Shown: piece after piece, positions 5,988 through 50,981 of the stretch
How the letters are laid out: every line of letters starts with the position of its first letter
Numbering within the stretch: the first letter of the stretch is position 1
NCBI GenBank assembly: GCA_041663005.1
Contig: JBAZRK010000002.1
Location: forward strand, 205,402 to 269,401
Direction: 5' to 3'
DNA: 64,000 nt
Source of the DNA: Minisyncoccota bacterium
GTDB taxonomy: Bacteria > Patescibacteriota > Minisyncoccia > Phycocordibacterales > UBA9973
Position numbers and translations under genes: made by a program
Notes under the pieces: model-generated
Seen by the model: the letters and a program-made list of their open reading frames with translations, nothing else
Database searches by the model: none
What the model was told of the DNA's origin: nothing

Positions 5988-6434
5988 ATGAGCGAAAAAT
6001 ATAGTCTTGATGCAGGTATCCCAGTACAAAAGCCAATAGAAAATAAGGAAAAGTTACCCAAAGTATTATTAGCAGAGGACAATGAAAGTGTTCGGGTTGC
6101 GACCGAGATGATGCTTGAAATGGCTGGGTATGAGACTGAAGTAGTTGAGAATGGAAAAGAATTACTGGATAGAGTTTTAAGCGGAGGTAAAATAAATTTT
6201 ATTGTAACTGACAATGAAATGCCAGAAATGGACGGACTTGAGGCCATCAAACTTATCAGAAATGATTCTCGGTTTGCCTCTACGCCAATAATAATGCATT
6301 CGGGGTCGCTGACAAAAGACATAATTGACCATGCGACGTCACTTCGGGTAGTTTGCTTAGGTAAGCCGTATTCGTTTGATGATTTTGAGGAGGCTCTTAA
6401 AAGAGCAAAGGCCCTAGTGCTAATGGGGGAATAA
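5988..6434 (+). CDS. stand-alone response regulator receiver (CheY-like REC) domain protein
   Basis: KVLLAEDN…TDNEMPEMDGLEAIKLIR is a typical REC domain, with the phospho-accepting Asp in TDNEMP. Confidence 0.7.
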   Translation: MSEKYSLDAGIPVQKPIENKEKLPKVLLAEDNESVRVATEMMLEMAGYETEVVENGKELLDRVLSGGKINFIVTDNEMPEMDGLEAIKLIRNDSRFASTPIIMHSGSLTKDIIDHATSLRVVCLGKPYSFDDFEEALKRAKALVLMGE

Positions 6435-6448
6435 GCCAAATACCATAT

Positions 6449-6476
6449 TTGACAATGGCTGGAAATTTGCTACTAT
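6449..6476 (+). promoter_or_regulatory. sigma70-type promoter (TTGACA-N16-TACTAT) with a conserved AATTTGC spacer
   Basis: -35 TTGACA at 6449-6454 and -10 TACTAT at 6471-6476. The same AATTTGCTA(C/G)TAT block recurs at 10701-10714 and 14453-14465. Confidence 0.45.
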
Positions 6477-6483
6477 GGTAAAT

Positions 6484-6515
6484 AACTGCACTTTCTGCAG
6501 TTTTTGTTTTGTTTT
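6484..6515 (+). promoter_or_regulatory. hairpin plus U-tract in the tuf leader (attenuator/terminator-like)
   Basis: AACTGCA (6484-6490) pairs with TGCAGTT (6496-6502), followed by tttttgttttgtttt. Confidence 0.35.
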
Positions 6516-6603
6516 ATAAATTTATTAGTTAATCTTGTTAGTAATTAGGCCTTAGCGACTGGTTCTCGTACGTTAAGTTTTAATTAGTAACTCAAATAAG
6601 CAT

Positions 6604-7797
6604 ATGGCAGAAGAATTTAAGAGAGATAAGCCGCACATCAATGTCGGCACCATTGGTCACGTTGACCATGGAAAGACAACTTTAACCGCGGCAATCCTCC
6701 ATGTTTTAAACATGATGGGGAACACAGTTAGACTTCGCGGAGTCGACCAAATCGACAACGCTCCCGAGGAAAAAGCTCGTGGAATCACTATTAACATTTC
6801 TCACAACGAGTACGCTACAGAAGCGCGTCACTATGCGCACATTGACGCTCCCGGACACGCCGACTACATCAAGAACATGATTACTGGTGCCGCTCAAATG
6901 GACGGTGCTATTCTTGTGGTTGCCGCAACAGACGGAGCTATGCCTCAGACTCGCGAACACGTTTTGCTCGCAAAGCAGGTTGGCGTGCCTAAAATCATTG
7001 TTTTCTTGAACAAATGCGACATGGTTGATGATAAAGATATGATTGACCTTGTTGAAGAAGAAATTCGTGAACTCCTTACAAAACAAGGCTTTGATGGCGC
7101 TGGCGCACCGGTTATCCGAGGCTCTGCTCTAAAAGCTCTTGAATCTTCTTCAAAGGACGATGAATGGGCCAAGAAAGTTGCTGAATTGGTAAATGCTCTC
7201 GATACTTACATCCCTATCCCAGAACGAGATGTTACCAAGCCTTTCCTTATGCCAGTTGAAGACATATTCTCAATCGAAGGCCGCGGTACAGTTGTAACCG
7301 GTAAAATCGAAAGAGGAATAGTTAAAGTAGGGGAAGAAGTGGAAGTAGTTGGTATTAAAGCTACCCAGAAGACCACAGTTACCGGTATCGAAATGTTTAA
7401 CAAGAACTTGCAAGAGGGTATGGCTGGCGACAACGCTGGTATTCTCCTCCGAGGTCTTAAGAAAGAAGATATAACTCGAGGACAGGTTCTCTGTAAGCCC
7501 GGTACAACTACCCCACACGATAACTTCACTGCAGAAATTTACGTGTTGAAAAAGGAAGAAGGTGGACGACACACTCCATTCTTCAAGGGATACAAACCTC
7601 AGTTCTACATCCGAACTACGGACGTGACTGGAGATGTTACCTTGGCAGAAGGAACCGAAATGGTTATGCCTGGAGATACGGTTAAGATTACAGTTAAATT
7701 AGTAACCCCGGTTGCCCTAGAAGAAGCCCAGAGATTTGCTATCCGAGAAGGAGGCAAGACGGTTGGGGCCGGAGTTGTTACGAAGATCTTAGGATAA
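6604..7797 (+). CDS. tuf: translation elongation factor Tu
   Basis: [26 protein letters not shown] motifs; 397 aa. Confidence 0.95.
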
Positions 7798-7820
7798 TAA
7801 ATTAAAAGTTAGATAGTTCC

Positions 7821-17118: not shown

Positions 17119-18390
17119 ATGGAAAATTTCTGGAACAAAATAAAACTGATATGGACAGACTCCAGCTTGCGAAATCGGATTTTTTTTGTGCTCTTTGCCC
17201 TAATCGTCTTCCGACTGCTTGCTGCTATTCCTATTCCAGGGATTGACCAGACGGCGCTTGAGCGTTTCCTTTCCAACAACCAATTCTTTGGCATCCTAAA
17301 CATTTTCTCTGGCGGTGGATTGTCCAACCTTTCTATCATAATGTTGGGCGTTGGTCCTTACATCACTAGCTCTATTATTATGCAGCTCCTTACCTTGATG
17401 GTTCCCGCCTTGAAGCGCCTTTATCACGAAGAAGGGGAAGCAGGTAGGAAAAAGTTTTCTCAGTGGAGCCGATTGATTACTGTTCCCTTGGCCGCAGTGC
17501 AGGGCTTCAGCTTGTTGTTCCTTTTGGAACAGCAAAATATTATTTTCCACCTCAATGCTTTCGACCGAATGACAAATTTGTTTATTGTCGTTGCGGGCTC
17601 TATCCTCCTTATGTGGATAGGGGAGCTCGTTACTGAGTTTGGAATTGGTAACGGAGTTTCTTTAATAATTTTCGCTGGTATCGTCTCACGTCTTCCGACC
17701 GTAGTTGGCGAGCTTGCCTTTCAATTTGATGCTTCCCAGATACCGCTTTACCTCGGGTTTGCTGTTGCTGGTCTTCTAGTCATCGCGGGTATCGTGGTGG
17801 TTACGGAAGCGGAGAGGCCAATTCCAGTTACTTATGCTAAACGTGTCCGCGGAGCGAAAATGTATGGTGGTGGGTCTACATACTTGCCTTTGCGTGTTAA
17901 CCAAGCCGGAGTAATTCCAATAATCTTTGCACTCTCCATCCTCCTCTTCCCTCAGATGATAGGAACTTTCTTGGCGCGTTTTACTAATCCAATTTTACTG
18001 AAAATTTCTGCTGTTCTTTCCGCATTCTCGAACACGAGCGTGCTCTACGCAGTGCTCTACTTTATGTTTGTATTTATGTTCACTTATTTCTATACCGCCG
18101 TTACTTTCGATCCGGAAGCTTTGTCCGAGAATTTACAAAAAAATGGCGCCTTTATTCCAGGTATTCGCCCAGGACCATCTACTTCAGAATATATTTCTAA
18201 GGTTCTTACCCGCATCACCCTCCTCGGGGCCGTATTCCTTGGAGTCATCGCCGTACTTCCAATAATTATGCAGCGAATGACTGGCATCGCCTCACTCGCC
18301 ATCGGGGGAACCTCGGTTCTTATCGTTGTCTCAGTAGTTCTAGACTTACTCAAAAAAGTCGATGCTCAAGTCTCAATGCGAGAGTACTAA
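17119..18390 (+). CDS. secY: preprotein translocase subunit SecY
   Basis: 10-TM profile, SecY plug/hinge motifs, position after rplO. Confidence 0.9.
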   Translation: MENFWNKIKLIWTDSSLRNRIFFVLFALIVFRLLAAIPIPGIDQTALERFLSNNQFFGILNIFSGGGLSNLSIIMLGVGPYITSSIIMQLLTLMVPALKRLYHEEGEAGRKKFSQWSRLITVPLAAVQGFSLLFLLEQQNIIFHLNAFDRMTNLFIVVAGSILLMWIGELVTEFGIGNGVSLIIFAGIVSRLPTVVGELAFQFDASQIPLYLGFAVAGLLVIAGIVVVTEAERPIPVTYAKRVRGAKMYGGGSTYLPLRVNQAGVIPIIFALSILLFPQMIGTFLARFTNPILLKISAVLSAFSNTSVLYAVLYFMFVFMFTYFYTAVTFDPEALSENLQKNGAFIPGIRPGPSTSEYISKVLTRITLLGAVFLGVIAVLPIIMQRMTGIASLAIGGTSVLIVVSVVLDLLKKVDAQVSMREY

Positions 18391-19157
18391 TTGTCTAGCC
18401 TTTTAGCTTCTGCCAGGGCTAATTTAAATACACTTCTTAGTGTTGTGGCTATTTCTTTGGATTCGATTATGACTCCCAATTTTTCTTTCCAAGAGGCAAT
18501 CATTACTTTGTCGTTATAAATTTCTATGTCTGTGGGCACGGGGAACTTATCTCCCGGCACAAGTGAAGTGTCGCGGTATTCTATTGCGTCCCTTGATTTT
18601 CTTTTGCGGGCGAGGGGAGTGTCAGCGACGAAAGTATGCACGAATATTTTTTTCTTGGCGCGGCGTTCATAGTATGTCTCAAAATATTTCGGTAAAGTCT
18701 CATGCATTTCTTCATACGTGGAAGTGGAATAAATATCTCCCTTAGACGTGAGGGAGTCTTCGTACACATGCTCTAATCCCGCAAACCCTTCATAGAAAAA
18801 TACGCGAGGCCTGTCACCCACATTATAGAGTGAAGTAAGCTCGGGTAAAACTTCTTTGGCAGTATCGGCGAGCGTTTTTTGTTTTTTAGCTTGCGCTTCA
18901 AGGTATTCCACCAAGTTGGCAGGGGACAGAGCGGCGTATTCTTCCTTCGGTTCTTTGCCGGAGATTTTTACGAGCTTTTTGCCGACTAGACTATCTAATA
19001 TGACATACCCGGTCGAGCGATTTATGCCCGCCTTCCTAGATATCTCAGCAACAGTACCTCGGCCCAGCTCTAATATGGTCAAATATATGGCTATTTCCTT
19101 GTCTAAAAAGCCACTATCTTTCAATAATTGCTCTATTTTTAACATTTGTTCCTTCAT
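18387..19157 (-). CDS. TrmB-family transcriptional regulator (N-terminal winged HTH)
   Basis: LTILELGRGTVAEISRKAGINRSTGYVILDSLVGKKLV is wHTH-like, with a C-terminal TrmB-like domain. Confidence 0.5.
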   Translation of the reverse strand: MKEQMLKIEQLLKDSGFLDKEIAIYLTILELGRGTVAEISRKAGINRSTGYVILDSLVGKKLVKISGKEPKEEYAALSPANLVEYLEAQAKKQKTLADTAKEVLPELTSLYNVGDRPRVFFYEGFAGLEHVYEDSLTSKGDIYSTSTYEEMHETLPKYFETYYERRAKKKIFVHTFVADTPLARKRKSRDAIEYRDTSLVPGDKFPVPTDIEIYNDKVMIASWKEKLGVIIESKEIATTLRSVFKLALAEAKRLDN

Positions 19158-19332
19158 ATATAAGCATTATATTTCAATACTTATTTTGTGTCAATAGAAA
19201 TTAACAAAATTCTGTGGATAACTTTTTAACCTTTCTAAATAAAGCTTAAAATAAATTAAATTGGTAAAATATATTGACAATCTCTAAAAGTGTGTTAGAT
19301 TCAAATTAAATCGTTATTTGAAAGGAGGGAGC

Positions 19333-19533
19333 ATGGATGCTCGAAAAGTTCAGCATCTAATCGGCAGACAAGTGTTGGTTGAGATGGCTAGTGGCGCACG
19401 CGGTAACGCAACACTAAAAGCGATCATTCCGCACTGTCTTGATCAGACCAAGTGGATTGCAGTATTCGGCAATGCTAAGGATTGGTATGTCGAAGGGGCT
19501 GAGATTACGTCTATCTTTGCTGTAACTAACTGA
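19333..19533 (+). CDS. small hypothetical protein (66 aa) in a GC-rich island
   Basis: Strong SD AAAGGAGGGAGC directly upstream of the ATG at 19333. GC3-rich codons unlike the neighbouring genes. Confidence 0.45.
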   Translation: MDARKVQHLIGRQVLVEMASGARGNATLKAIIPHCLDQTKWIAVFGNAKDWYVEGAEITSIFAVTN

Positions 19534-19550
19534 GAAGGAGAAAACTGATT

Positions 19551-20129
19551 ATGTTGTGGTATCTTGTGTTTTTCGTCCTCGGCGTCGCGGCAGCTCTCGT
19601 GTCGCCCGCTGGTTCCACTAAGGAGTCGCTTCAGGTGATCGAAGCCGTGTCGCTCACCGCACTCCTCGCATCTCTCTACGTGCCGTTCGCCGGCTTCGCC
19701 AAGAACGAGAAGTGGCAGAAGTTCGTCCTGCAGAATGTGGCGTGCGCGCTCTTCGGTGTCTATGCCGTAGTCGTGTACGAAGACGGCTCGTTCGCTGGCG
19801 TATTGGCCCTCGTGGTGGTCTCGTCTATGCACTTCGCGTACTGGACGAGCTCCATTCACAGTCGTAACTACCGACTCGAGCAGTTTCGGATGGGGTTCGC
19901 GCCGAGAATGCCCATGACCGCTCGATTCGTGGCGATGCTCAATGCTCAGGGGCGAGCGCACCAGGCTGACATCATCGTCTCTTGCACTCTCAGTGGCAAG
20001 ATGTTGCCCGGTTGGGATTTTGCGAGAGGACTCGAGCTTCCTCCCGGCTGCTGGTCCTGGATACACCTCGTCGACGCAGAGATGACGAACGTGTTCACGC
20101 CGCCGTCCGGCGCAGTTGATCATCCGTAG
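19551..20129 (+). CDS. hypothetical membrane protein (about 4 N-terminal TM helices plus a ~90-aa C-terminal domain) in a GC-rich island
   Basis: SD GAAGGAGAA 8 nt upstream. GC about 58-60% versus about 42% in flanking DNA. Hydrophobic N-terminus MLWYLVFFVLGVAAALV…. Confidence 0.45.
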   Translation: MLWYLVFFVLGVAAALVSPAGSTKESLQVIEAVSLTALLASLYVPFAGFAKNEKWQKFVLQNVACALFGVYAVVVYEDGSFAGVLALVVVSSMHFAYWTSSIHSRNYRLEQFRMGFAPRMPMTARFVAMLNAQGRAHQADIIVSCTLSGKMLPGWDFARGLELPPGCWSWIHLVDAEMTNVFTPPSGAVDHP

Positions 20130-20202
20130 TTTCACATCACGACCGCTTGAATGGGGAGGCCACCGGCCACACCTCGCAGGCGGTCTTCTCATTTCTACTC
20201 AA

Positions 20203-20772
20203 TTATTTTTCCAGCCACCTTTGGTATTCGGAGACGACGAGATCAACAACCTGCTCAAGGTTGTTTTTGTTTGTGTCTATGACTAAGTCGAAGTTGTTTT
20301 TGTCGGTATGGTTTTCGATGCCGTAGAGGTCTTTGTATCTTTTTTTCTCACTTAAAAGACGGGCGTCTATTTTCGCCTGGATTTCTTCCGGGGAAGAGGA
20401 GTCCTCGCTCTGCTTGCGAAGTGCATTTTCTTTTAAATTATTTAAAATTCTTTCCTTGGCGATTTCTGGAGGCAAATCCAAATACACTTTAAAAGATTCC
20501 GGTATCCAGTGGAATGCCAAGCGAGAGTCAATGACAATTTTTTCCATTTCTCCTGCCTTCCTCACTTCGGCATCAATGGCTAGGTCTATCGTGTCGTCTG
20601 CTTGGGCTTTAATGCTCAAGTCGTTTACTGTTATGCCCATATCTACCGCAAGCTTTCGCATAAAATCGCCCGAGGAGAAGCGCGTGAAGCCCAGCTTTTC
20701 TGCTACCAAGTCCGCCGTGCTCGACTTGCCAGAGCCTAATGTGCCCGTGATGGTGATGATTTCCTTCTTCAT
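20203..20772 (-). CDS. cmk: cytidylate kinase-like P-loop nucleoside monophosphate kinase
   Basis: N-terminal P-loop ITITGTLGSGKSS; about 190 aa NMP-kinase layout; lies beside adk and pyrH. Confidence 0.45.
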   Translation of the reverse strand: MKKEIITITGTLGSGKSSTADLVAEKLGFTRFSSGDFMRKLAVDMGITVNDLSIKAQADDTIDLAIDAEVRKAGEMEKIVIDSRLAFHWIPESFKVYLDLPPEIAKERILNNLKENALRKQSEDSSSPEEIQAKIDARLLSEKKRYKDLYGIENHTDKNNFDLVIDTNKNNLEQVVDLVVSEYQRWLEK

Positions 20773-20794
20773 AATTTATGCTATTATAACACAT

Positions 20795-21388
20795 ATGCAA
20801 CCGCAAACTTTCATATTTTTCGGCATAGTGGGCTCCGGCAAAGGCACCCAGGTGAAGCTCCTTATGGAGTACTTAAAAGGCAAAGATAGCGCCCCTTGTG
20901 TGTACATAGGAACAGGGGAAATTTTCCGTGCGATTGCGCATTCTACCGACCTGGACGAGAATGTGCGTATGGTGAAGGAACTTCTAGACGCTGGTCGCCT
21001 GATTCCTGATGAAATGACCAACCAGCTTGTGCTTCAGAAAATTGATACGGAATTGTCTGCCGAAAAGCATTGCCTTTTCGATGGATATCCACGGACCGTT
21101 TCTCAATCTGAAGTTTTCGAAGGAAAGATGAAGGAAATTGGGCGCGGAAACATAAAAATAATTTACCTAGAGCTTAGCAAAGAAGAGGCCACGAAAAGAA
21201 ATCTTCTGCGTGGGAGGCATGACGACACCGCTGAAGGCTTGGCGAAAAGATTTGATGAATACGTGAACAAAGTTGTGCCAGCTATGAATTATTTCAAGGG
21301 TAAGAACGGCTATACAATATATGCTATTAACGGCGAGCAGTCGGTCGAAGACGTGCACAGAGAGATACTAGAAAAGATTAATTTATAA
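20795..21388 (+). CDS. adk: adenylate kinase
   Basis: IFFGIVGSGKGTQ P-loop, LFDGYPRT, NMP-binding and LID regions. The track ORF 20333..21388 extends spuriously upstream across the divergent cmk-like gene. Confidence 0.85.
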   Translation: MQPQTFIFFGIVGSGKGTQVKLLMEYLKGKDSAPCVYIGTGEIFRAIAHSTDLDENVRMVKELLDAGRLIPDEMTNQLVLQKIDTELSAEKHCLFDGYPRTVSQSEVFEGKMKEIGRGNIKIIYLELSKEEATKRNLLRGRHDDTAEGLAKRFDEYVNKVVPAMNYFKGKNGYTIYAINGEQSVEDVHREILEKINL

Positions 21389-22074: not shown

Positions 22075-22850
22075 TAACGATAAAAACTCCGGAAGAAATA
22101 AAAATAATCCGCGAATGCGGTCGGAGGTTGGCAACCGTGCTGTATAAGGTTAAAGATATGATAGCGCCGGGAATTTCAACCAAGGACCTAGACGTGTATG
22201 CGGAAAAGCTTATCCGAGATATGGGGGATGTCCCAGCTTTTTTAGGTTATCGACCGGAGGGCGCTCGCATTCCTTTTCCGGCGACACTTTGCGTTTCAGT
22301 TAATGATGAAGTGGTGCACGGTATTCCACGCAAAGATCGAATCTTAAAAGAGGGAGACATCGTGTCTATAGACCTTGGTGTTAAACACAAAGGCCTGTTT
22401 ACCGATATGGCGCTCACCGCGCCGGTGGGCCGGGTAAGCGATACAGATTCGAAATTAATGAAGCTCACCGAGCAAGCCCTGGAAGCCGGCATTTTCGCCG
22501 CGCGAGCGGGGAGTAGGGTTGGGGACATTGGCCATGCCATCGAGAGTTTCGTGCGGGGACAGAAAGGGCAGAAATATGGCATCGTGGAAGTTCTCGCCGG
22601 CCACGGCGTAGGACACAAAATTCATGAAGACCCTTTCGTGCCGAATTTTGGCCGAAAAGGTACAGGAGCGAAGCTAGTGCCGGGAATGATACTTGCCCTA
22701 GAGCCTATGCTTAATCTTGGAACTAAAGAAGTAACTATGGATGATGATGAATATACCTTCCGAACCGCTGACGGCAAAAGGAGCGCCCATTTTGAACATA
22801 CGATACTCATCACAGAAGGTGAACCTGAGATACTGACAAAAATTTCTTAA
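22071..22850 (+). CDS. map: methionine aminopeptidase type I
   Basis: IKTPEEIKIIRECGR, pita-bread fold metal ligands (D…D…H…E…E). Confidence 0.85.
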   Translation: MITIKTPEEIKIIRECGRRLATVLYKVKDMIAPGISTKDLDVYAEKLIRDMGDVPAFLGYRPEGARIPFPATLCVSVNDEVVHGIPRKDRILKEGDIVSIDLGVKHKGLFTDMALTAPVGRVSDTDSKLMKLTEQALEAGIFAARAGSRVGDIGHAIESFVRGQKGQKYGIVEVLAGHGVGHKIHEDPFVPNFGRKGTGAKLVPGMILALEPMLNLGTKEVTMDDDEYTFRTADGKRSAHFEHTILITEGEPEILTKIS

Positions 22851-22902: not shown

Positions 22903-25668
22903 ATGAATCCCTCTTTTATAAAAGAGATGCCGAAATTCAAGACTCCAGAGGAGGAGCTGGATTATCTTCGTGCCCACGTTAAGAAGCGCGAAGAGGAACT
23001 TATAGAAATAGGACACACTGAACGCACTGCAGAGATGGCTACGCGCGAGGTTATGGGCGAATACAGAACGGTCCCGGTGGAGAAAGCCGTGCATAAAGAT
23101 AATGTTTTGAAAGAAGACGAAACCGAAGGCATTGTGCTTAAACTTAAACCTGAACCGCATGATACCGTGATGGAAGAGCTTTTGGGGATTGTGATTACTA
23201 AAGGAATCCGAAATGCGCTTTCTGTAGTTGAGGCAATGGGCAATCCGCATATCGATGACGACTTTCATCGTTTACTCATTCAATATTTCAAAACTGGGCA
23301 AATCACTGGGTTTAAAGAAGGTACTCCGATGTATCGGTCTCTTAATATGACTCTTTTTGAAATAACTTTGCCGCCGCCACAAGACGAAGCCGACAAGTCG
23401 AAGGGCTTTAAAGAATTTATCGGGGCCATGGAGCAGTTTTATGCCGGTATGCAGTCTATCTCCGAAGGCAAGAGTAATGAGAAAGAAAATTATTTCACCA
23501 TAGAGGTGGCGCTTGGCAATCAAAGCGATGAAGTGGTGATATATGCCGCTGTGCCCAATAAATATTTGTCTCTTTTTGAAAAACAAATCCTGGCTTTCTA
23601 TCACGATGCGAAAATCCGAGAGGTAACCGACGACTACAACATTTTCAACGAGCAGGGCGCCTCGACAGGGGCTTATGCTGTGTTCACTGAACGCCCAGTA
23701 ATGCCCATTAAGACCTATGACGAGATCGAGCACGACCCGATGAACCCTATTCTAAACGTTTTCTCCAAGCTACAGAAGAGCGGTGAAGGAGCGGCTATTC
23801 AATTCCTCATAGCTCCGGCGGGGGATAAATTTATCAATGAGTTTCATATGATTCTAGATGATGTCAAAGACGGCATTTCAGTTAAACATGCGGCAGACAA
23901 TTTCTATAAATGGCGTAGTGCTCTCAAGACTGCCGGCAAGGATCTCTTGTTTGGGCTGAAAGAAAAAAACGAAGAAGAAAAAAAGGAAAAGTATATGAAA
24001 GGCAGGCGCGCCGTGGATGAAGGTGCCGCAGAAAAAATAGGCAACAAAATAAAGAGCACCATAATGAAAGCGAATATCCGCGTGATTGCCTCCGGCGAAA
24101 CGAAAGAGCGCGCAGAAGCAATTCTTCGTGAAATAGAATCTTCCTTCAATCAATTTTCTGCCGCAGCTTCAAATTCTTTCATCTTCCAAGAGGCGAAGGG
24201 CGGCGACTTGAAAAAACTTTTCCACGATTTTTCTTACCGAGCTTTTGCACACGAAAAGATTCTCCCGATGAACTTGAAAGAACTTTCTTCCGTTTTCCAC
24301 TTCCCGGTAGGTATGGGTAGTCAGCCGCAACTCAAAGAAGCCAAGGCGGGCATTGCGCCAGCACCGATAGAAATGGGAACCGAAGGCATAGTCTTGGGCA
24401 TAAATAGCTACCGAGGCCGAGATACGGAAGTGCACTTAGCCCGAGAAGACAGGATGAGACATATGTATGTAATAGGGCAAACTGGAACCGGTAAGACGAA
24501 CATTATGCTCAATATGATTACTCAGGATATCCGTAACGGTGACGGGTGCTGCTACATTGACCCTCATGGCACAGATATCCAGACGATCCTCTCTAGAATT
24601 CCTAAGGAGCGCATTGACGATGTTATCTATTTCGATCCCGCCTATACTGCCCGTCCAATGGGACTCAACATGCTCGAATATGATCCAAAGTACCCTGAGC
24701 AGAAAACCTTCGTGGTGAACGAAATGATGGGAATTTTCAACAAACTTTTCGATATGAAAGTCGGAGGCGGAGCGATGTTCGAACAATATTTCCGAAACAG
24801 CGCCTTTCTCGTGATGGAAGACCCTTCTTCCGGTTCGACCCTCCTTGAGATTACTCGAGTGCTTGGTGACAAAGAATTTCGCGATTTGAAATTGTCCCGT
24901 TGCAAGAATCCAATCATAAAACAATTTTGGGTTTCGGCGGAGCAGACTACGGGTGACCAGTCGCTCGCAAACTTCGTGCCCTATATTTCTTCCAAATTCG
25001 ACAACTTTATTTCCAACGACATAATGCGTCCAGTGGTGCTTCAGCAGAACTCGGTTTTTAATTTTAGAAAAATTATGGACGAGAAGAAAATTCTCTTGGT
25101 CAATCTTTCGAAAGGTAGACTGGGCGACATCAATGCGAACCTCATAGGTCTCGTGCTTGTTGGCAAAATTCAAATGGCCGCACTGTCTCGTGTAGATATG
25201 TTCGGCAAGCCGATGAATGATTTCTATTTGTATATCGATGAGTTCCAGAACGTTACCACGGACTCTATCGCTTCAATTCTCTCAGAAGCGCGAAAGTATA
25301 GATTGTCTCTCAACATTGCCCACCAGTACATTACCCAGCTCGAAGAGAATATCAAGAATGCTGTTTTTGGTAACGTCGGCTCTATGGCGGTGTTCCGTGT
25401 GGGTACCGAAGACGCGACATTCCTCGAGCCGAAATTCAAACCGCAATTTACCGCGCACGACATTACTAAACTTGATAACTTTAATGCGTATATGAGCATG
25501 CTAGTGAAAGGTCAGCCTACCAAACCTTTCAACATCCGCACGCTAGCGCCCGAGACTGGAAATCCAGAAATAGTGGACAGCTTGAAAGAACTTTCATATG
25601 TTAAATACGGTCGTGATCGTGAAGAAGTGGAGAAGGAAATAATGTCGCGATACAATACGATGGAATAA
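22903..25668 (+). CDS. soluble P-loop ATPase with a TraD/TrwB/VirD4-like (type IV coupling protein-like) C-terminal half and a novel ~480-aa N-terminal domain
   Basis: Walker A HMYVIGQTGTGKT, DPHG motif (compare DPKG in coupling proteins), Walker B LYIDEFQNV, and ARKYRLSLNIAHQYITQL (compare RKxxxxxxxxxQSxxQL). No predicted TM helices. Confidence 0.5.
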   Translation: MNPSFIKEMPKFKTPEEELDYLRAHVKKREEELIEIGHTERTAEMATREVMGEYRTVPVEKAVHKDNVLKEDETEGIVLKLKPEPHDTVMEELLGIVITKGIRNALSVVEAMGNPHIDDDFHRLLIQYFKTGQITGFKEGTPMYRSLNMTLFEITLPPPQDEADKSKGFKEFIGAMEQFYAGMQSISEGKSNEKENYFTIEVALGNQSDEVVIYAAVPNKYLSLFEKQILAFYHDAKIREVTDDYNIFNEQGASTGAYAVFTERPVMPIKTYDEIEHDPMNPILNVFSKLQKSGEGAAIQFLIAPAGDKFINEFHMILDDVKDGISVKHAADNFYKWRSALKTAGKDLLFGLKEKNEEEKKEKYMKGRRAVDEGAAEKIGNKIKSTIMKANIRVIASGETKERAEAILREIESSFNQFSAAASNSFIFQEAKGGDLKKLFHDFSYRAFAHEKILPMNLKELSSVFHFPVGMGSQPQLKEAKAGIAPAPIEMGTEGIVLGINSYRGRDTEVHLAREDRMRHMYVIGQTGTGKTNIMLNMITQDIRNGDGCCYIDPHGTDIQTILSRIPKERIDDVIYFDPAYTARPMGLNMLEYDPKYPEQKTFVVNEMMGIFNKLFDMKVGGGAMFEQYFRNSAFLVMEDPSSGSTLLEITRVLGDKEFRDLKLSRCKNPIIKQFWVSAEQTTGDQSLANFVPYISSKFDNFISNDIMRPVVLQQNSVFNFRKIMDEKKILLVNLSKGRLGDINANLIGLVLVGKIQMAALSRVDMFGKPMNDFYLYIDEFQNVTTDSIASILSEARKYRLSLNIAHQYITQLEENIKNAVFGNVGSMAVFRVGTEDATFLEPKFKPQFTAHDITKLDNFNAYMSMLVKGQPTKPFNIRTLAPETGNPEIVDSLKELSYVKYGRDREEVEKEIMSRYNTME

Positions 25669-30935: not shown

Positions 30936-30956
30936 GAACATTGATAAGAAAATATG

Positions 30957-31354
30957 GGGATGCAAGGCATAGACAGTTGGCTCATTGTCATCGATGCATG
31001 TCGAGAATGAACGTAATCTCGTGAAAATTCGTTCAATAGCTTAATTGCAAAATTAGCTTCCAAAACTAAAGCTGTTGTTTCTTCATACTTTAGTATGAAG
31101 GACTTTGTTTTAGTTCCAGCTTTCGCGTAAGCCAAGGTTGGCGTCTCTCTTATAGACTTCCGATATATAAGCTGAGGTGTAATATTATCGGGATAGGGGA
31201 AAGAATGTCTCGGTTTTCTCCCGAAACAAAGAGACTCGGTTAAAAAATATTTGGCACGCTTCATAATTTTTTAATCTAAACCAAAAAGCGCGATAAACAT
31301 GTAGACTTCCTTACAAAAACCTTCTGCACGGGGATTCGATTTCCCCCATCTCCA
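30957..31354 (+). ncRNA. ssrA: tmRNA (ssrA), tRNA-Ala-like ends, candidate 27-aa tag reading frame
   Basis: The 5' GGGGAUG (30957-30963) pairs with the 3' CAUCUCC (31347-31353), including the G3·U70 wobble that is the alanine identity element. Discriminator A at 31354. T-arm GGGGA-UUCGAUU-UCCCC at 31330-31346. An AAUAGC element sits before a GCA resume codon at 31047, and the frame runs to UAA at 31128-31130 encoding AKLASKTKAVVSSYFSMKDFVLVPAFA. Lies immediately downstream of smpB. Confidence 0.55.
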
Positions 31355-31396
31355 CACATTTTAATTTTAAAACATGAGCTTAACCTTTCATGGATT

Positions 31397-33388: not shown

Positions 33389-33462
33389 CCGTCCTTAGCT
33401 CAGTTGGTTAGAGCACAGAGCTTATACCTCTGGGGTCCTTGGTTCGAATCCAAGAGGACGGA
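33389..33462 (+). tRNA. tRNA-Ile with anticodon UAU (manual fold)
   Basis: Acceptor CCGTCCT/AGGACGG, D-arm GCTC-AGTTGGTTA-GAGC, anticodon stem CAGAG/CTCTG with loop CTTATAC (anticodon TAT), T-arm CTTGG-TTCGAAT-CCAAG, discriminator A; CCA not encoded. Confidence 0.6.
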
Positions 33463-33626
33463 CACTAAAAATCTAAAAAATTTACCTCGTACGGGCTTGT
33501 AGTTGCTCGATTTTACAGAGTGTCTCTTGTTTTATTTTTTCTCCTGTTTTCTTTTGCAAAGTTTTCCAAAAAACAGTGGTTTTCCACTTTACATTGAGGG
33601 GCTAACTGCGTGATAATGATAGTCCA

Positions 33627-49241: not shown

Positions 49242-50981
49242 ATGAGTTTTTTAGAAGAATTAGCCAAACAAGGCGTAATAGATAAAAATAAAATAGGAGA
49301 AATCAAAGATCGCGCGCGCGAAGACCATGGTGGCGATATAGACGAGGCGCTTGTGAGTCTAGGAATTCCCGCTGAAAAGATATTAGAACTCAAAGGAGAC
49401 TATTTAGGTATTCCCGTCAAGAAATTAAATATCGAAGAGATGTCTTTCGATGCCCTGAAATACATATCGGAAGATTCTGCTGTGCACTATCGCTTTGTTC
49501 CACTGGAACTTAAAGATGGGGTGCTGGAAGTTGGCGTTACAGACCCTGAAAACATGCAAGGCATGGACGCTTTGCAGTTTATTTCTACTAAAATAGGTCT
49601 TCCTTTTAAAGTTTTTCTTATTTCCAAAAACGATTACGATAGTGTTATAGAAACCTATAAAGGCATTGAAAGCCAGGTGGGAGAGGCGCTAGAGGAATTA
49701 AGTAAAGAAGAGATAGACGACGTAAAAAAATTAAGTGCGGAAAATCTTAATAAGGAAATCAAAAATATAGAGCCCGGTAATGAAAAAATAGTTGAAGACG
49801 CACCGGTTATAAAAATTGTCGCGGTAATTCTCCGGAACGCCATCGAAGGAAATGCCTCAGATATACATATTGAGCATATGGGAGAAAAGGTTAAAGTCCG
49901 CTTTCGGGTGGATGGGGCACTTCACACAACCATAACCCTACCACCGAGTGTTTATGCGGGAGTCGTGGCCCGCATTAAAATTTTAGCTAAATTGCGCTTA
50001 GACGAGAAACGCAAGCCTCAGGATGGATCATTCAGTGCCAATATAGACAATCGTAAGATAGATTTTCGCGTATCTACAATGCCAGCGTATTATGGAGAGA
50101 AAGTCGTAATGCGAATCCTCGATTCCGAGAAAGGGGTGAAACCCCTCGATCAGTTGGGACTCTCCGAAGTCAATTTAAATATAATTCGAGAAGCAATAAA
50201 GAAACCCTACGGACTCATTTTAATTACTGGTCCTACCGGTTCTGGGAAATCCACTACTCTTTATTCAATGATGAACGAGCTCGATAAAGAAACTTCAAAC
50301 ATTATTTCTTTAGAAGATCCGGTGGAGTACCATATGCCTGATATTAACCAGTCACAGATGATGCCAGAAATTGGTTATACTTTCGCTTCCGGTCTACGTT
50401 CAATTCTTCGCCAGGACCCGGATATAATAATGGTGGGAGAAATTCGTGATAAAGAAACGGCCCAGCTGGCTATCCAGGCCGCGCTTACGGGGCACTTGGT
50501 TCTTTCGACGCTTCACACCAACAGCGCCGTGGGCGCCATACCGAGGCTCGTAGACATGGGTGTGGATCCATATTTAATTGCTCCGACGTTAATCGTTTCC
50601 ATTGCCCAGCGGTTGGCTCGTCTCACATTTCCAGCCTCACGAAAGGAGGTGCCTATGGATCCAAGTGTACGTACGCAAATCGAAGAACAGATGAGAGATT
50701 TGCCGGAACAATGGCGACCAGCGATAGGAGACAAGATGTACGATATCGTGCCTTCTCCTGAATGTCCTTCCGGGACACGCGGGCGTATAGCGGTTTTCGA
50801 AATGTTCAAGGTGGATAAGGAAATGCAGTCAGTAATATTGAAGAATCCGGTTAACTCGGAAATTTATAGAGTCGCTCGAAAGAATGGAATGCTCATCATG
50901 CGCGAAGATGCTATGTTGAAATCACTGCAAGGACTCATTCCTTTTACAGAGGTATATAATTTTAATAATGAAACAGAGTAA
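49242..50981 (+). CDS. pilB: type IV pilus assembly ATPase PilB (GspE family)
   Basis: Walker A GPTGSGKSTT, Asp box, His box, tetracysteine motif (CPSG…); SD AAAGGAGGA upstream. Confidence 0.85.
   Translation: MSFLEELAKQGVIDKNKIGEIKDRAREDHGGDIDEALVSLGIPAEKILELKGDYLGIPVKKLNIEEMSFDALKYISEDSAVHYRFVPLELKDGVLEVGVTDPENMQGMDALQFISTKIGLPFKVFLISKNDYDSVIETYKGIESQVGEALEELSKEEIDDVKKLSAENLNKEIKNIEPGNEKIVEDAPVIKIVAVILRNAIEGNASDIHIEHMGEKVKVRFRVDGALHTTITLPPSVYAGVVARIKILAKLRLDEKRKPQDGSFSANIDNRKIDFRVSTMPAYYGEKVVMRILDSEKGVKPLDQLGLSEVNLNIIREAIKKPYGLILITGPTGSGKSTTLYSMMNELDKETSNIISLEDPVEYHMPDINQSQMMPEIGYTFASGLRSILRQDPDIIMVGEIRDKETAQLAIQAALTGHLVLSTLHTNSAVGAIPRLVDMGVDPYLIAPTLIVSIAQRLARLTFPASRKEVPMDPSVRTQIEEQMRDLPEQWRPAIGDKMYDIVPSPECPSGTRGRIAVFEMFKVDKEMQSVILKNPVNSEIYRVARKNGMLIMREDAMLKSLQGLIPFTEVYNFNNETE

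Follow-up and report, generated by a model that had tools for sequence, protein, structure and literature searches.

Does a GC-rich, Shine-Dalgarno (SD)-led island in an SD-poor genome mark a recently imported gene cassette, or can such a signature belong to a gene that has long resided at its locus? The question is raised by positions 19318-20200 of the window, the whole stretch of 64,000 nucleotides that was analyzed. A sequence-only reading had interpreted this segment as a two-gene cassette (ORF1 and ORF2) acquired horizontally from a higher-GC, SD-using donor. In our best explanation, which we hold to be fairly probable as a whole, the operon is an old resident of its Paceibacterota (CPR) lineage, not a fresh foreign insert. 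The anomaly itself was real, and lateral exchange of an SD+ORF2 unit within CPR is suggested by the phylogeny; the proposed recent import, however, was not borne out, given the age of the locus and the lack of a donor.

Results

Base Composition and SD Motifs Set ORF2 Apart in the Window

The features of the locus are listed in table 1. The 700-bp GC maximum of the 64-kb window was 0.58, in windows starting near 19550-19580, which is approximately 5 sd above the mean of 0.435 (sd 0.029), and positions 19318-20200 were 55.7% GC. Sliding GC and codon-adaptation analyses, which had been suggested as a check, both placed the outlier at ORF2, whose CAI-like score was the lowest of the 59 window genes (z = -3.8). 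ORF2 was 59% GC, with GC1/GC2/GC3 of 0.59/0.44/0.75, compared with a GC3 mean of 0.436 (sd 0.053, maximum 0.553) for the other window genes; with a second background set, its GC3 z was 6.3. Its residue usage leaned to GC-rich codons (Ile 2.6%, Ala 12.5%, and Val 11.5%). The GC-rich block consisted of ORF2 and 66 nt past its stop (19551-20195, 59% GC); thus, the description of a GC-rich two-gene island held for ORF2 and the terminator, but not for ORF1, which was host-like in composition (46.8% GC, GC3 0.43). The spacer at 19158-19317 was 20% GC and carried a sigma-70-like site on each strand, in line with the low-GC spacer with divergent promoters that had been described.

A GGAG or GAGG motif at -20 to -4 preceded 4 of the 59 window genes, both ORF1 and ORF2 among them, and the others had A/T-rich leaders. 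The scarcity of SDs in the window and the strong SDs on both ORFs were thus recovered as first read (AAAGGAGGG before 19333 and GAAGGAGAA before 19551), including the 8-nt gap between GAAGGAGAA and the ORF2 ATG. The 249-aa antisense ORF had been regarded as a probable artifact, and we rejected it as a gene: no comparable stop-free antisense run was present in L002, L004, or L006-L011 (eight of nine homologous loci), its codon-position GC (0.68/0.47/0.56) did not follow a gene-like pattern, and Pfam, NCBIfam, PHROG, and PADLOC scans returned no family match above noise. The window neighbors encode ribosomal proteins, SecY, kinases, and Map. No integrase or transposase was present among the genes flanking ORF1-ORF2, and no att-like repeats flanked the unit, around which only short chance-level repeats were detected.

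Table 1. Positions of Features at the ORF1-ORF2 Locus in the Window
Feature	Position	Strand	Remarks
TrmB-family wHTH regulator ("type A")	18387-19157	-	PF01978; divergent from operon
AT-rich divergent control region (20-23% GC)	19158-19332		Candidate operator sites; invariant blocks in five genomes
trmB-like gene promoter-like site	19166-19194	-	TTGACA-17-TATAAT, 12/12 matches; conserved in alignment A3
ORF1-ORF2 operon promoter-like site	19274-19301	+	TTGACA-16-TAGATT, TG ahead of -10
ORF1 putative SD, AAAGGAGGG	19321-19329	+	Read from sequence; ATG at 19333
ORF1, 66-aa orphan ORF in variable slot	19333-19533	+	Host-like composition
ORF2 putative SD, GAAGGAGAA	19534-19542	+	Begins 1 nt past ORF1 stop; ATG at 19551
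ORF2, 192 aa, four predicted TM helices	19551-20129	+	GC-rich, rare codons; unannotated CPR-restricted family
GC-rich hairpin (20141-20185) followed by UUCUCAUUU; putative operon terminator	20141-20194	+	Conserved; folding energy
249-aa antisense ORF, not a gene	19443-20192	-	Not conserved; codon-position GC
Archaeal-type (d)CMP kinase; marks host boundary on right side	20203-20772	-	TIGR02173 E 1.1e-25, PF13189; GC3 0.55

ORF2 Belongs to a Rare Membrane-Protein Family

ORF2 is a real coding gene of a rare, unannotated family. We found 8 close homologs, and an exhaustive HMM search of 1.84 billion representatives recovered approximately 55 clusters; a further search with a 46-sequence ORF2 profile added at least 3 distant members among the matches listed. 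All family members were on CPR-like contigs where the context was known, and a moderate amino-acid GC signature was present in every member and a high-GC signature in none. ORF2 had no match in Pfam, NCBIfam, PHROG, PADLOC, or the PDB (by sequence and by structure), and its profile search against PDB sequences was likewise negative; no Pfam family was common to more than two of the 46 family members scanned. The viral, phage, and plasmid sets IMG/VR, INPHARED, and PLSDB contained no match to ORF2. A phage holin identity was rejected, with no match in PHROG, BFVD, IMG/VR, or INPHARED and a chromosomal core-gene context.

The AF2 model of ORF2 (pLDDT 88.7, pTM 0.82) contained an amphipathic helix in addition to four TM helices, and its C-terminal domain was helical, in agreement with the architecture first read from the 192-aa protein (approximately four TM helices plus a C-terminal domain). 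The protein probably lies in the inner membrane with four TM helices in an N-in/C-in topology. Within the family, E53 and S104 were invariant and G69, W98, R105, and L130 were near-invariant; the substitution pattern was TM-typical, and the C-terminus was hypervariable among homologs. According to the model, conserved polar residues would be located on the predicted cytoplasmic face, in an E53-x-W55-x-K57 loop and an H103-S104-R105-x-Y107-R108 helix, and the cytoplasmic helical domain, variable at its C-terminal end, would adjoin this polar face. ORF2 may be a regulated membrane effector. It could be a carrier for small solutes or part of a channel; alternatively, it could serve a cytoplasmic partner as its membrane anchor or sensor.

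ORF2 Is Old at Its Locus and Was Probably Exchanged between TrmB-Linked Loci

The gene order secY-trmB-X-cmk/adk-adk-pyrH-map was common to L002, L004, L005, and L006, four related genomes, and each of them carried an ORF2 homolog between the trmB-like gene and cmk/adk. The suggested check for a contiguous secY-trmB-cmk order in relatives found no example, and no empty site lacking ORF2 between the trmB-like gene and cmk was observed among the sampled loci. The fourfold synonymous sites of these four genomes were already at the composition expectation, that is, saturated. The shared locus in four relatives, together with saturated synonymous sites, indicated that ORF2 is old at this locus and that leftover donor composition cannot explain its GC3 of 0.75. 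Host-like composition of the same genes in relatives had been named as the outcome that would overturn the cassette interpretation; ORF2 was indeed present in the relatives, but its composition there was not host-like.

In divergent CPR contigs, the ORF2 homolog adjoined a different (type-B) TrmB-like gene. For SecY, TrmB, Map, and PyrH, and likewise for ORF2, the window locus was the sister of L005. Elsewhere, the ORF2 tree conflicted with the neighboring genes: between ORF2 of L015 (type B) and that of L004 (type A), protein identity was 80% and DNA identity 78%, with the similarity beginning at the SD and stopping near codon 142, and the two grouped with 96% bootstrap support at odds with their neighbor genes. 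Between the regulator types, ORF2 was 40-80% identical and TrmB 25-34%. This conflict, which rests mainly on one well-supported pair, suggests that the SD+ORF2 unit has been laterally exchanged between TrmB-linked loci within CPR at least once. Paralog conversion inside one genome could produce the same L015/L004 pattern. In the flanks, nucleotide identity was 0.65-0.85 with no sharp step, and no recent recombination tract was detected.

The Anomaly Is a Property of the ORF2 Family

Relative to the other ORFs of each locus, the GC3 of ORF2 had z values of 3.5-7.9 in six loci with a usable background, exceeded that of the single background ORF in L009, and was at z of approximately 1 only where the host GC3 was already 0.44-0.55. 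Across 12 loci, ORF2 GC3 was 0.62±0.08 (range 0.51-0.76) and host GC3 was 0.42±0.09 (range 0.27-0.56), with saturated synonymous sites and a correlation of r = 0.10; the values of the window, L004, and L015 (0.75-0.76) were higher than that of any sampled host. The SD was similarly widespread: 11 of the 13 other loci had one ahead of the ORF2 homolog. It was a GGAG core, in most cases at a distance of 6-8 nt to the ATG, in L002, L004, L005, L007, L008, L010, L011, L014, and L015 and an AGGA-type core in L009 and L016; in L013, a weaker AAAGGA lay at a distance of 12 nt, and L006 had no SD before the homolog. Approximately 95% of the surveyed neighboring ORFs lacked an SD, and ORF2 homologs with their operon partners were nearly the sole SD-led ORFs per locus. 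Since all sampled hosts are SD-poor, the SD of ORF2 is not a donor relic. The conservation and spacing of the GGAG motifs suggest a function as SDs. The window itself contains no rRNA, including the 16S 3' end. The anti-SD motif is reportedly absent from about half of Parcubacteria (PMC9297842).

The ORF2 anomaly thus recurs in roughly twelve CPR genomes that differ in base composition. As part of our best explanation, we consider it rather probable that the high GC content, the GC-ending rare codons, and the start led by an SD characterize the ORF2 family as a whole and not this particular insertion. Two candidate causes are the most likely: the gene may recombine or circulate laterally within a pool of CPR genes, or selection may act on it specifically for translation that is SD-dependent and throttled. 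In bacteria, the reported GC effects of recombination fall well short of the excess of +0.3 in GC3 found for ORF2.

A TrmB-Like Regulator and a Conserved Control Region Adjoin the ORF1-ORF2 Operon

The divergent regulator matched PF01978 with 47.6 bits over residues 12-79 (cut-off 25.6 bits), its residues 8-165 matched the TrmB structure 3QPH (chain 3QPH_A) at E 5.8e-6, and it was 76-89% identical to its counterparts in L002, L004, L005, and L006. Beyond residue 79, no Pfam domain and no TrmB C-terminal sugar-binding domain was detected, and NCBIfam TrmB equivalogs scored 19-27 bits against cut-offs of 500-650; with no such domain detected and scores so far under the cut-offs, the protein is named only TrmB-like. 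Of the 12 loci with enough upstream sequence, counting the window, 11 had a divergent TrmB-like gene next to the ORF2 homolog. This arrangement was recorded in the window, L002, L004-L008, L010, L011, L013, L015, and the P0003 contig. In L014, a relative of ORF2 was one of three genes in a GC-rich, SD-led block that no TrmB gene adjoined. We found nothing relevant in the literature on TrmB in CPR/Patescibacteria.

The control region showed 75% mean column identity among the five type-A loci of alignment A3, with invariant blocks that include AAATTGGTAAAAT, TTGACAAT, and ATAACAAAATT, compared with the saturated synonymous sites of the flanking genes; TTGACAAT, at the operon promoter, was invariant across the five syntenic loci. 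Both -35 boxes fell within a 19-nt imperfect inverted repeat (19189-19207/19261-19279), and in type-B loci a GGTGAT..ATCACC palindrome abutted a TTG(A/G)CCACTCA -35 box. We propose that a TrmB-family winged-helix regulator is transcribed divergently from the conserved 175-bp AT-rich control region and that a sigma-70-type promoter in this region drives the series SD-ORF1-SD-ORF2-hairpin terminator. The TrmB-like protein would bind the conserved operator blocks, hold the operon under ligand-dependent control, and probably regulate its own gene. The best reading of the stretch is accordingly that of an operon for a four-TM membrane protein under putative TrmB control.

ORF1 Occupies a Variable Slot and a Conserved Hairpin Closes the Operon

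Among 5.8 billion clusters, ORF1 matched only itself. It had nothing above noise in Pfam, NCBIfam, PHROG, or PADLOC, and no homolog or paralog in the window or at the other loci, where the ORFs upstream of ORF2 were dissimilar. This slot held unrelated ORFs in other loci and was empty in L002, L006, and L011; L005 had the same leader and SD as ORF1, followed by an unrelated 178-aa ORF. The supposed pairing of the two genes therefore did not stand, since ORF1 is unique and the ORFs upstream of ORF2 elsewhere are unrelated or absent. The slot downstream of ORF2 was also a variable islet, occupied by TA genes at L009 and L015 and by a Cas2-like PaaX gene at L006, and asparaginase and ion-channel genes neighbored the ORF2 homologs of L005 and L013. 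ORF1 would thus be an orphan in a genome-variable slot, and ORF2 the conserved cargo.

The hairpin at 20141-20185 had an MFE of -28.9 kcal/mol (z = -3.68). Its 17 pairs were kept in the window, L005, L006, and L009, in each case after the last ORF of the operon, and the region was 97% identical across 61 nt between the window and L005. Positions 20141-20194 have the features of an intrinsic (Rho-independent) terminator; a simple terminator scanner did not list the site.

Discussion

Alternative Explanations of the Locus

If two genes had recently been imported together from a donor outside the lineage that has a higher GC content and uses SDs, and if their signatures were still unameliorated, this would account for the strong outlier in composition and codon usage, the SD motifs within an SD-poor genome, and the amino-acid usage shifted to GC-rich codons. 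However, ORF2 occupies the same locus in four relatives with saturated synonymous sites, ORF1 is an orphan with host-like composition, no homolog was found off CPR-like contigs or in phages and plasmids, a high-GC amino-acid signature is absent from every family member, and neither an integrase or transposase nor a flanking att-like repeat was present; we regard such an import as very improbable. We give next to no credence to the idea that the block is a structured noncoding RNA or antisense gene with ORF2 as a by-product. In AT-rich genomes, islands of high GC content often prove to be structured RNAs, and a 249-aa antisense ORF does exist, but a search of 18300-21000 against Rfam gave no match at E ≤ 1, the GC1/GC2/GC3 values of ORF2 form a coding-frame pattern, conservation is at the protein level with saturated synonymous sites and no excess synonymous conservation, and the antisense ORF is not conserved. 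The folding energy of the window locus showed no excess over synonymous shuffles (z = +1.4), and across homologs the mRNA folding was inconsistent (z +1.4 to -3.1). A conflict system, in which ORF2 is a membrane-disrupting Abi or toxin effector, the TrmB-like repressor its off-switch, and the upstream ORF an immunity or sensor component, also seems unlikely. Defense systems commonly employ small, tightly repressed effectors with several TM segments, and the hypervariable partner ORFs and C-terminus, the evidence for lateral exchange, the rare codons of ORF2 (consistent with low expression), and the TA and Cas2-like PaaX genes of the downstream slot would all fit. Nevertheless, the toxin/immunity, Abi, or defense role raised at the outset gained no match for ORF1 or ORF2 in PADLOC, Pfam, PHROG, or NCBIfam; the lack of any upstream partner in L002, L006, and L011 makes an obligatory immunity gene unlikely; the position in a ribosomal/secY/kinase superoperon is stable over deep divergence; and the asparaginase and ion-channel neighbors point to physiology, not defense.

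A possible but doubtful alternative to the old resident operon is that a promoterless SD+ORF2 cassette circulates among CPR genomes and lands repeatedly downstream of TrmB-linked promoters, supplied by an unsampled CPR phage or plasmid reservoir or by homology-facilitated swapping. It would retain its GC content and SD either by moving on before amelioration can catch up, or through recombination-associated GC-biased repair of the exchanged unit. The grouping of L015 and L004 across regulator types and neighborhoods is consistent with such circulation, as are the decoupling of ORF2 identity from TrmB identity between types, the lack of correlation between ORF2 GC3 and host GC3, the variability of both slots around ORF2 and of its C-terminus, the GC-rich, SD-led block of L014 without TrmB, and the extent of the anomaly, which is exactly SD-ORF2-terminator. 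On the other hand, no vehicle, recombinase, or repeat was found, the flanks contain no recent recombination tract, the window locus and L005 are sisters in flanking genes and ORF2 alike, and retention of an SD in SD-poor hosts requires selection anyway. Since the ORF2 GC3 of the window, L004, and L015 is above that of any sampled host, the reservoir is hypothetical. A more speculative extension, which we rate as a long shot, is that CPR TrmB-like genes guard an integron-like platform into which SD-bearing, GC-rich, promoterless cassettes are swapped without a tyrosine recombinase; with equally slender odds, the platform would consist of a fixed promoter and leader and a conserved closing hairpin, and the cassettes would come from a CPR-wide pool. 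If this were true, SD-led, rare-codon genes would form a small set translated apart from the SD-less bulk, and the locus would represent an integron-like arrangement of a new type.

Implications for CPR Genomes

According to the old-resident interpretation, even a conspicuous "island" of high GC content and SD motifs can be something other than a recent import, the signature belonging here to one gene family. Since this signature persists across about a dozen CPR genomes past synonymous saturation, HGT calling from composition in CPR MAGs would misinterpret it. ORF2 and its homologs also constitute a rare family of unannotated membrane proteins for which a confident fold model, invariant residues, and a conserved TrmB-like regulator are now described, and, as regulation in CPR is almost uncharacterized, the locus provides a concrete candidate set of regulator, operator, and target. 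Moreover, it is a natural test case for the role of residual SD motifs in SD-poor bacteria, and ORF2 is one for whether recombination-linked GC bias or selection holds one gene off the genome composition.

Comparison with Known Systems

The closest regulatory parallel is with archaeal TrmB/TrmBL1 of Thermococcus/Pyrococcus, which acts on a trehalose/maltose ABC transporter. The two share the N-terminal winged helix and the helix region matching 3QPH, the placement of a divergent regulator beside membrane-protein genes, and conserved promoter DNA that is palindromic or operator-like. However, archaeal TrmB/TrmBL1 has approximately 340 aa with a sugar-binding domain, whereas the window regulator has 256 aa and no such domain was detected in it, and the putative target is a single four-TM protein in a bacterial (CPR) host instead of an ABC transporter. 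With HGT islets, the locus shares atypical GC content and codon usage, a short unit, variable neighboring slots, and at least one phylogenetic conflict. It differs in that the locus is kept in diverged relatives, the anomaly outlasts synonymous saturation and occurs in many hosts, and there are no mobility genes, att repeats, or identifiable donor.

The locus resembles integron cassettes in three respects: a divergent platform gene and its promoter stand ahead of one to three variable SD-led ORFs; the series ends in a conserved palindrome; and there are signs that an SD+ORF unit has moved between platforms. In contrast to integrons, the divergent gene of the window encodes a TrmB-like wHTH protein and not an IntI tyrosine recombinase, and no cassette arrays were seen. 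The palindrome, a candidate for comparison with attC and its R/L-box pattern, has a 17-bp stem and a U-rich, terminator-like tail. Finally, SD-led exceptions in SD-poor bacteria, such as rpsU in Bacteroidia, were reportedly described by Baez et al. 2019 and Jha et al. 2021. The rpsU product is a ribosomal protein, whereas ORF2 is a predicted membrane protein; in both cases, a conserved strong SD is maintained on one gene amid A/U-rich SD-less leaders.

Composition and Signals of the trmB-cmk Interval

The interval between the TrmB-like regulator gene and cmk contains the highest 700-bp GC peak of the window (0.58 vs. a mean of 0.435, sd 0.029; whole-window GC 43.4%), and the codon-adaptation profile agreed with the anomaly described in the sequence-only reading, ORF2 ranking lowest among 59 genes (z = -3.8). 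ORF2 showed GC1/GC2/GC3 values of 0.59/0.44/0.75, compared with a GC3 of 0.436±0.053 (maximum 0.553) in the other window genes; CTC made up 65% of its Leu codons vs. 18% in the host, and Ile only 2.6% of its residues, with Val and Ala in its place. However, the proposed GC-rich two-gene island held for only one gene: ORF1 lacked the anomaly (46.8% GC, GC3 0.43), and thus the GC-rich block comprises ORF2 and the 66 nt 3' of its stop. A second, smaller GC rise (0.53-0.57 in 300-nt windows) was observed at 22300-22700 within the host map gene, whose gene-level GC3 was nevertheless normal (0.47), indicating that short GC peaks are possible in ordinary genes.

The strong Shine-Dalgarno (SD) motifs reported before both ORFs were present, and GGAG/GAGG at -20 to -4 occurred in only 4 of 59 window genes, the remaining leaders being A/T-rich. 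The only other strong SD, AAAGGAGGA, is located ahead of the gene for a type II/IV secretion ATPase (T2SSE + MshEN), which has a host-like composition (GC3 0.41). In a published survey, only 48% of Parcubacteria 16S genes had a detectable anti-SD motif (PMC9297842); no rRNA genes were found within the 64-kb window. The AT-rich spacer with divergent promoters was also recovered, with 20% GC and a promoter-like site in each direction: TTGACA-16-TAGATT faces the operon, and the TrmB-like gene has a perfect TTGACA-17-TATAAT. The hairpin following ORF2 was 97% identical to that of L005 (one of the L-numbered loci carrying ORF2 homologs in other genomes or contigs) over 61 nt, and all 17 pairs were kept in the window, L005, L006, and L009, always 3' of the last ORF of the operon; we read the hairpin and its tail as a predicted operon terminator.

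Two further candidates were rejected. The 249-aa antisense ORF, already suspected to be an artefact, was not conserved at homologous loci and had no coding GC pattern. A hidden structured RNA was discarded because Rfam gave no match for the GC-rich stretch, ORF2 showed no excess synonymous conservation, and its folding relative to synonymous shuffles was inconsistent (z = +1.4 in the window, -1.2 to -3.1 in the others, and approximately 0 in host genes).

Features of the window discussed in this section
Feature	Position	Strand	Remarks
secY	17119-18390		
TrmB-like regulator gene	18387-19157	-	
AT-rich spacer	19158-19317		
ORF1	19333-19533	+	66 aa
ORF2	19551-20129	+	192 aa, predicted four-TM protein
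GC-rich block	19551-20195		59% GC
Hairpin after ORF2 stop	20141-20185		-28.9 kcal/mol, z = -3.7; then UUCUCAUUU
cmk, archaeal-type	20203-20772	-	
921-aa protein gene	22903-25668	+	TraD/VirD4-like P-loop segment
tmRNA gene	30956-31357	+	Rfam RF00023, 115 bits; missed by ARAGORN
tRNA-Ile, anticodon TAT	33389-33463	+	ARAGORN; Rfam tRNA
Type II/IV secretion ATPase gene	49242-50981	+	

Synteny and Age of the Locus

ORF2 corresponds to locus tag WCT29_02230 in a Candidatus Paceibacterota MAG (exact-sequence match) and is found where the ribosomal-protein/secY cluster ends, in the order S5, L15, secY, TrmB-like (-), flagged stretch, cmk (-), adk, amino-acid-kinase-fold gene, and map. The 921-aa protein, annotated as DUF8128 in the precomputed annotation of L004, was 84% identical there at the same position, which makes it a conserved part of the core genome and not a sign of conjugation. 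The window also carries a tmRNA gene and a UAU-anticodon tRNA-Ile; the latter is uncommon in bacteria, in which AUA is mostly decoded by a lysidine-modified CAU tRNA. No L30 gene lies between S5 and L15 (16750-16778), as is usual in CPR genomes, which generally lack it (PMC9297842).

The order secY, TrmB-like (-), ORF2 homolog, cmk/adk-like (-), adk, pyrH-like, map was common to L002 (GCA_020049755.1), L004, L005, and L006, whose flanking proteins were 72-89% identical to those of the window; the first 150 aa of ORF2 were 55-61% identical to the syntenic homologs, with L005 closest in both flanks and ORF2. At identical 4-fold-degenerate codons, the third-base identity of ORF2 equaled the composition expectation, and that of SecY, TrmB, and Map was slightly above it. 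The syntenic lineages are thus separated by saturated synonymous divergence, and leftover donor composition from an ancestral acquisition cannot explain a GC3 of 0.75. We are confident that ORF2 is an old resident of the secY-trmB-cmk locus, coupled to the TrmB-like regulator, and was not recently imported from a high-GC donor, which speaks against the horizontal acquisition first proposed.

ORF1 showed no such conservation: its sole match in 5.8 billion clusters was itself, and it had no relatives within the window or the retrieved loci. Elsewhere, the slot between promoter and ORF2 held unrelated ORFs of 97-322 aa (an XRE-type HTH protein in L016, an asparaginase in L013) or was empty (L002, L006, and L011); in the window and L005, a common leader and first-ORF SD lead into unrelated ORFs. 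ORF1 is plausibly translated; judged from these comparisons, it is not a member of a conserved pair, contrary to the soluble-plus-membrane module first envisaged. Beyond the hairpin, other loci carried a 289-291-aa protein without annotation, an asparaginase fragment, a PaaX/Cas2-like gene, or HicB-like and HepT/MNT TA genes, making the trmB-cmk interval a variable islet.

A divergent TrmB-like gene lay upstream of the ORF2 homolog at all sufficiently long loci except L014. These regulators formed two types, with 74-89% identity within type A (the window, L002, and L004-L006), 61-81% within type B (L007, L008, L010, L011, L013, and L015), and only 25-34% between types. Although synonymous sites were saturated, the 175-bp control region of type-A loci retained 75% identity with long invariant blocks; type-B loci shared a GGTGAT..ATCACC palindrome adjoining a TTG(A/G)CCACTCA -35 box. 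The window regulator has a TrmB wHTH, and residues 8-165 match TrmB structure 3QPH, but it scores far under the TrmB equivalog cut-offs, and no sugar-binding domain was detectable in it. From gene arrangement and operator conservation, we infer that the TrmB-like protein probably regulates the operon. The type-A regulator, inside the ribosomal-protein/secY/adk/map cluster, was conserved at least as well as SecY (76-89% vs. 78-88% aa identity in L002, L004, L005, and L006), a level atypical of a specific regulator and suggestive of a wider role.

The ORF2 Protein Family

ORF2 had no Pfam, NCBIfam, PHROG, or PADLOC match, which gives no support to the toxin/immunity or defence module suggested earlier. 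A word-indexed search of the 5.8 billion clusters recovered eight homologs (46-85% identity), and only 55 family members came out of an exhaustive HMM search covering 1.84 billion representatives; a Pfam scan of 46 members matched no family consistently. The AlphaFold2 model, built from a 46-sequence alignment, was confident (pLDDT 88.7, pTM 0.82) and bore out the predicted four TM helices and C-terminal domain, with helices 2-16, 20-42, 54-78, and 81-98 forming a TM bundle, followed by helices 102-115, 121-132, 136-148, and 169-182. E53 and S104 are invariant and G69, W98, R105, and L130 near-invariant; the region beyond residue ~150 is variable between homologs. The charge distribution (three K/R in the TM2-TM3 loop, acidic residues in the TM3-TM4 loop, and eight K/R after TM4) suggests an N-in/C-in topology, which, if right, would have the conserved E-x-W-x-K loop, together with the H-S-R-x-Y-R helix, face the cytoplasm.

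We are confident that ORF2 is a genuine gene and that it belongs to a rare family of membrane proteins restricted to CPR; as to function, our best guess is a membrane protein under regulation that acts on small solutes or in signalling, with a conflict-system effector as the minority alternative. Asparaginase-family genes adjoin ORF2 homologs at two unrelated loci, between the TrmB-like gene and ORF2 in L013 (1867-2835) and just downstream of ORF2 in L005 (6617-7222), and an Ion_trans/bestrophin-like channel gene lies 3' of ORF2 in L013; these neighbours are a possible functional hint.

Recurrence and Origin of the Anomaly

Relative to other long ORFs of the same locus, the ORF2 homolog had a GC3 z-score of 6.3 in the window, 7.9 in L002, 6.2 in L004, 4.6 in L006, 5.8 in L008, and 3.5 in L011. 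Values of approximately 1 were confined to L005, L007, and L010, where the host GC3 is itself 0.44-0.55. L015 (GC3 0.76 vs. 0.36-0.48 in neighbours) and L014 are further cases. Over 12 loci, ORF2 GC3 was 0.62±0.08 vs. 0.42±0.09 in the host (r = 0.10). A GGAG core, mostly 6-8 nt ahead of the ATG, was present at most loci, and hardly any ORF of a locus was SD-led apart from the ORF2 homolog and its partner in the operon (for example, L002 1/16, L005 1/15, and L008 2/10). Because all sampled hosts are SD-poor, the SD is kept in place within them and does not derive from a donor, and we are confident that GC richness, rare codons, and an SD-led start characterize the ORF2 family as such.

ORF2 relationships did not track the regulator types. 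The ORF2 of the type-B locus L015, surrounded by cupin and aldo-keto-reductase genes, and that of L004, at the type-A secY-cmk locus, were 80% (protein) and 78% (DNA) identical, more than any pair within the type-A group, from 17 nt upstream of the ATG to near codon 142, and paired with an NJ bootstrap of 96%. Thus, SD and ORF2 moved together at least once from one TrmB-linked locus to another, or else paralogous copies were converted. The search for a vehicle was negative: the locus carried no integrase or att-like repeat, ORF2 had no viral, phage, or plasmid homologs, and no recombination step was seen in the flanks. This tree conflict and the missing correlation with host GC are consistent with lateral circulation or with GC bias linked to recombination, and the retention of the SD at most loci in SD-poor hosts is consistent with gene-specific selection; both may be at work. 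L014 contains two GC-rich (0.5-0.6), SD-led orphan-ORF blocks (450-2400 and 6150-7800) on a background of ~0.40-0.46 GC, one of which holds a distant ORF2 relative without an adjacent TrmB gene, a hint that CPR genomes may contain a broader set of accessory genes that are GC-rich and SD-led.
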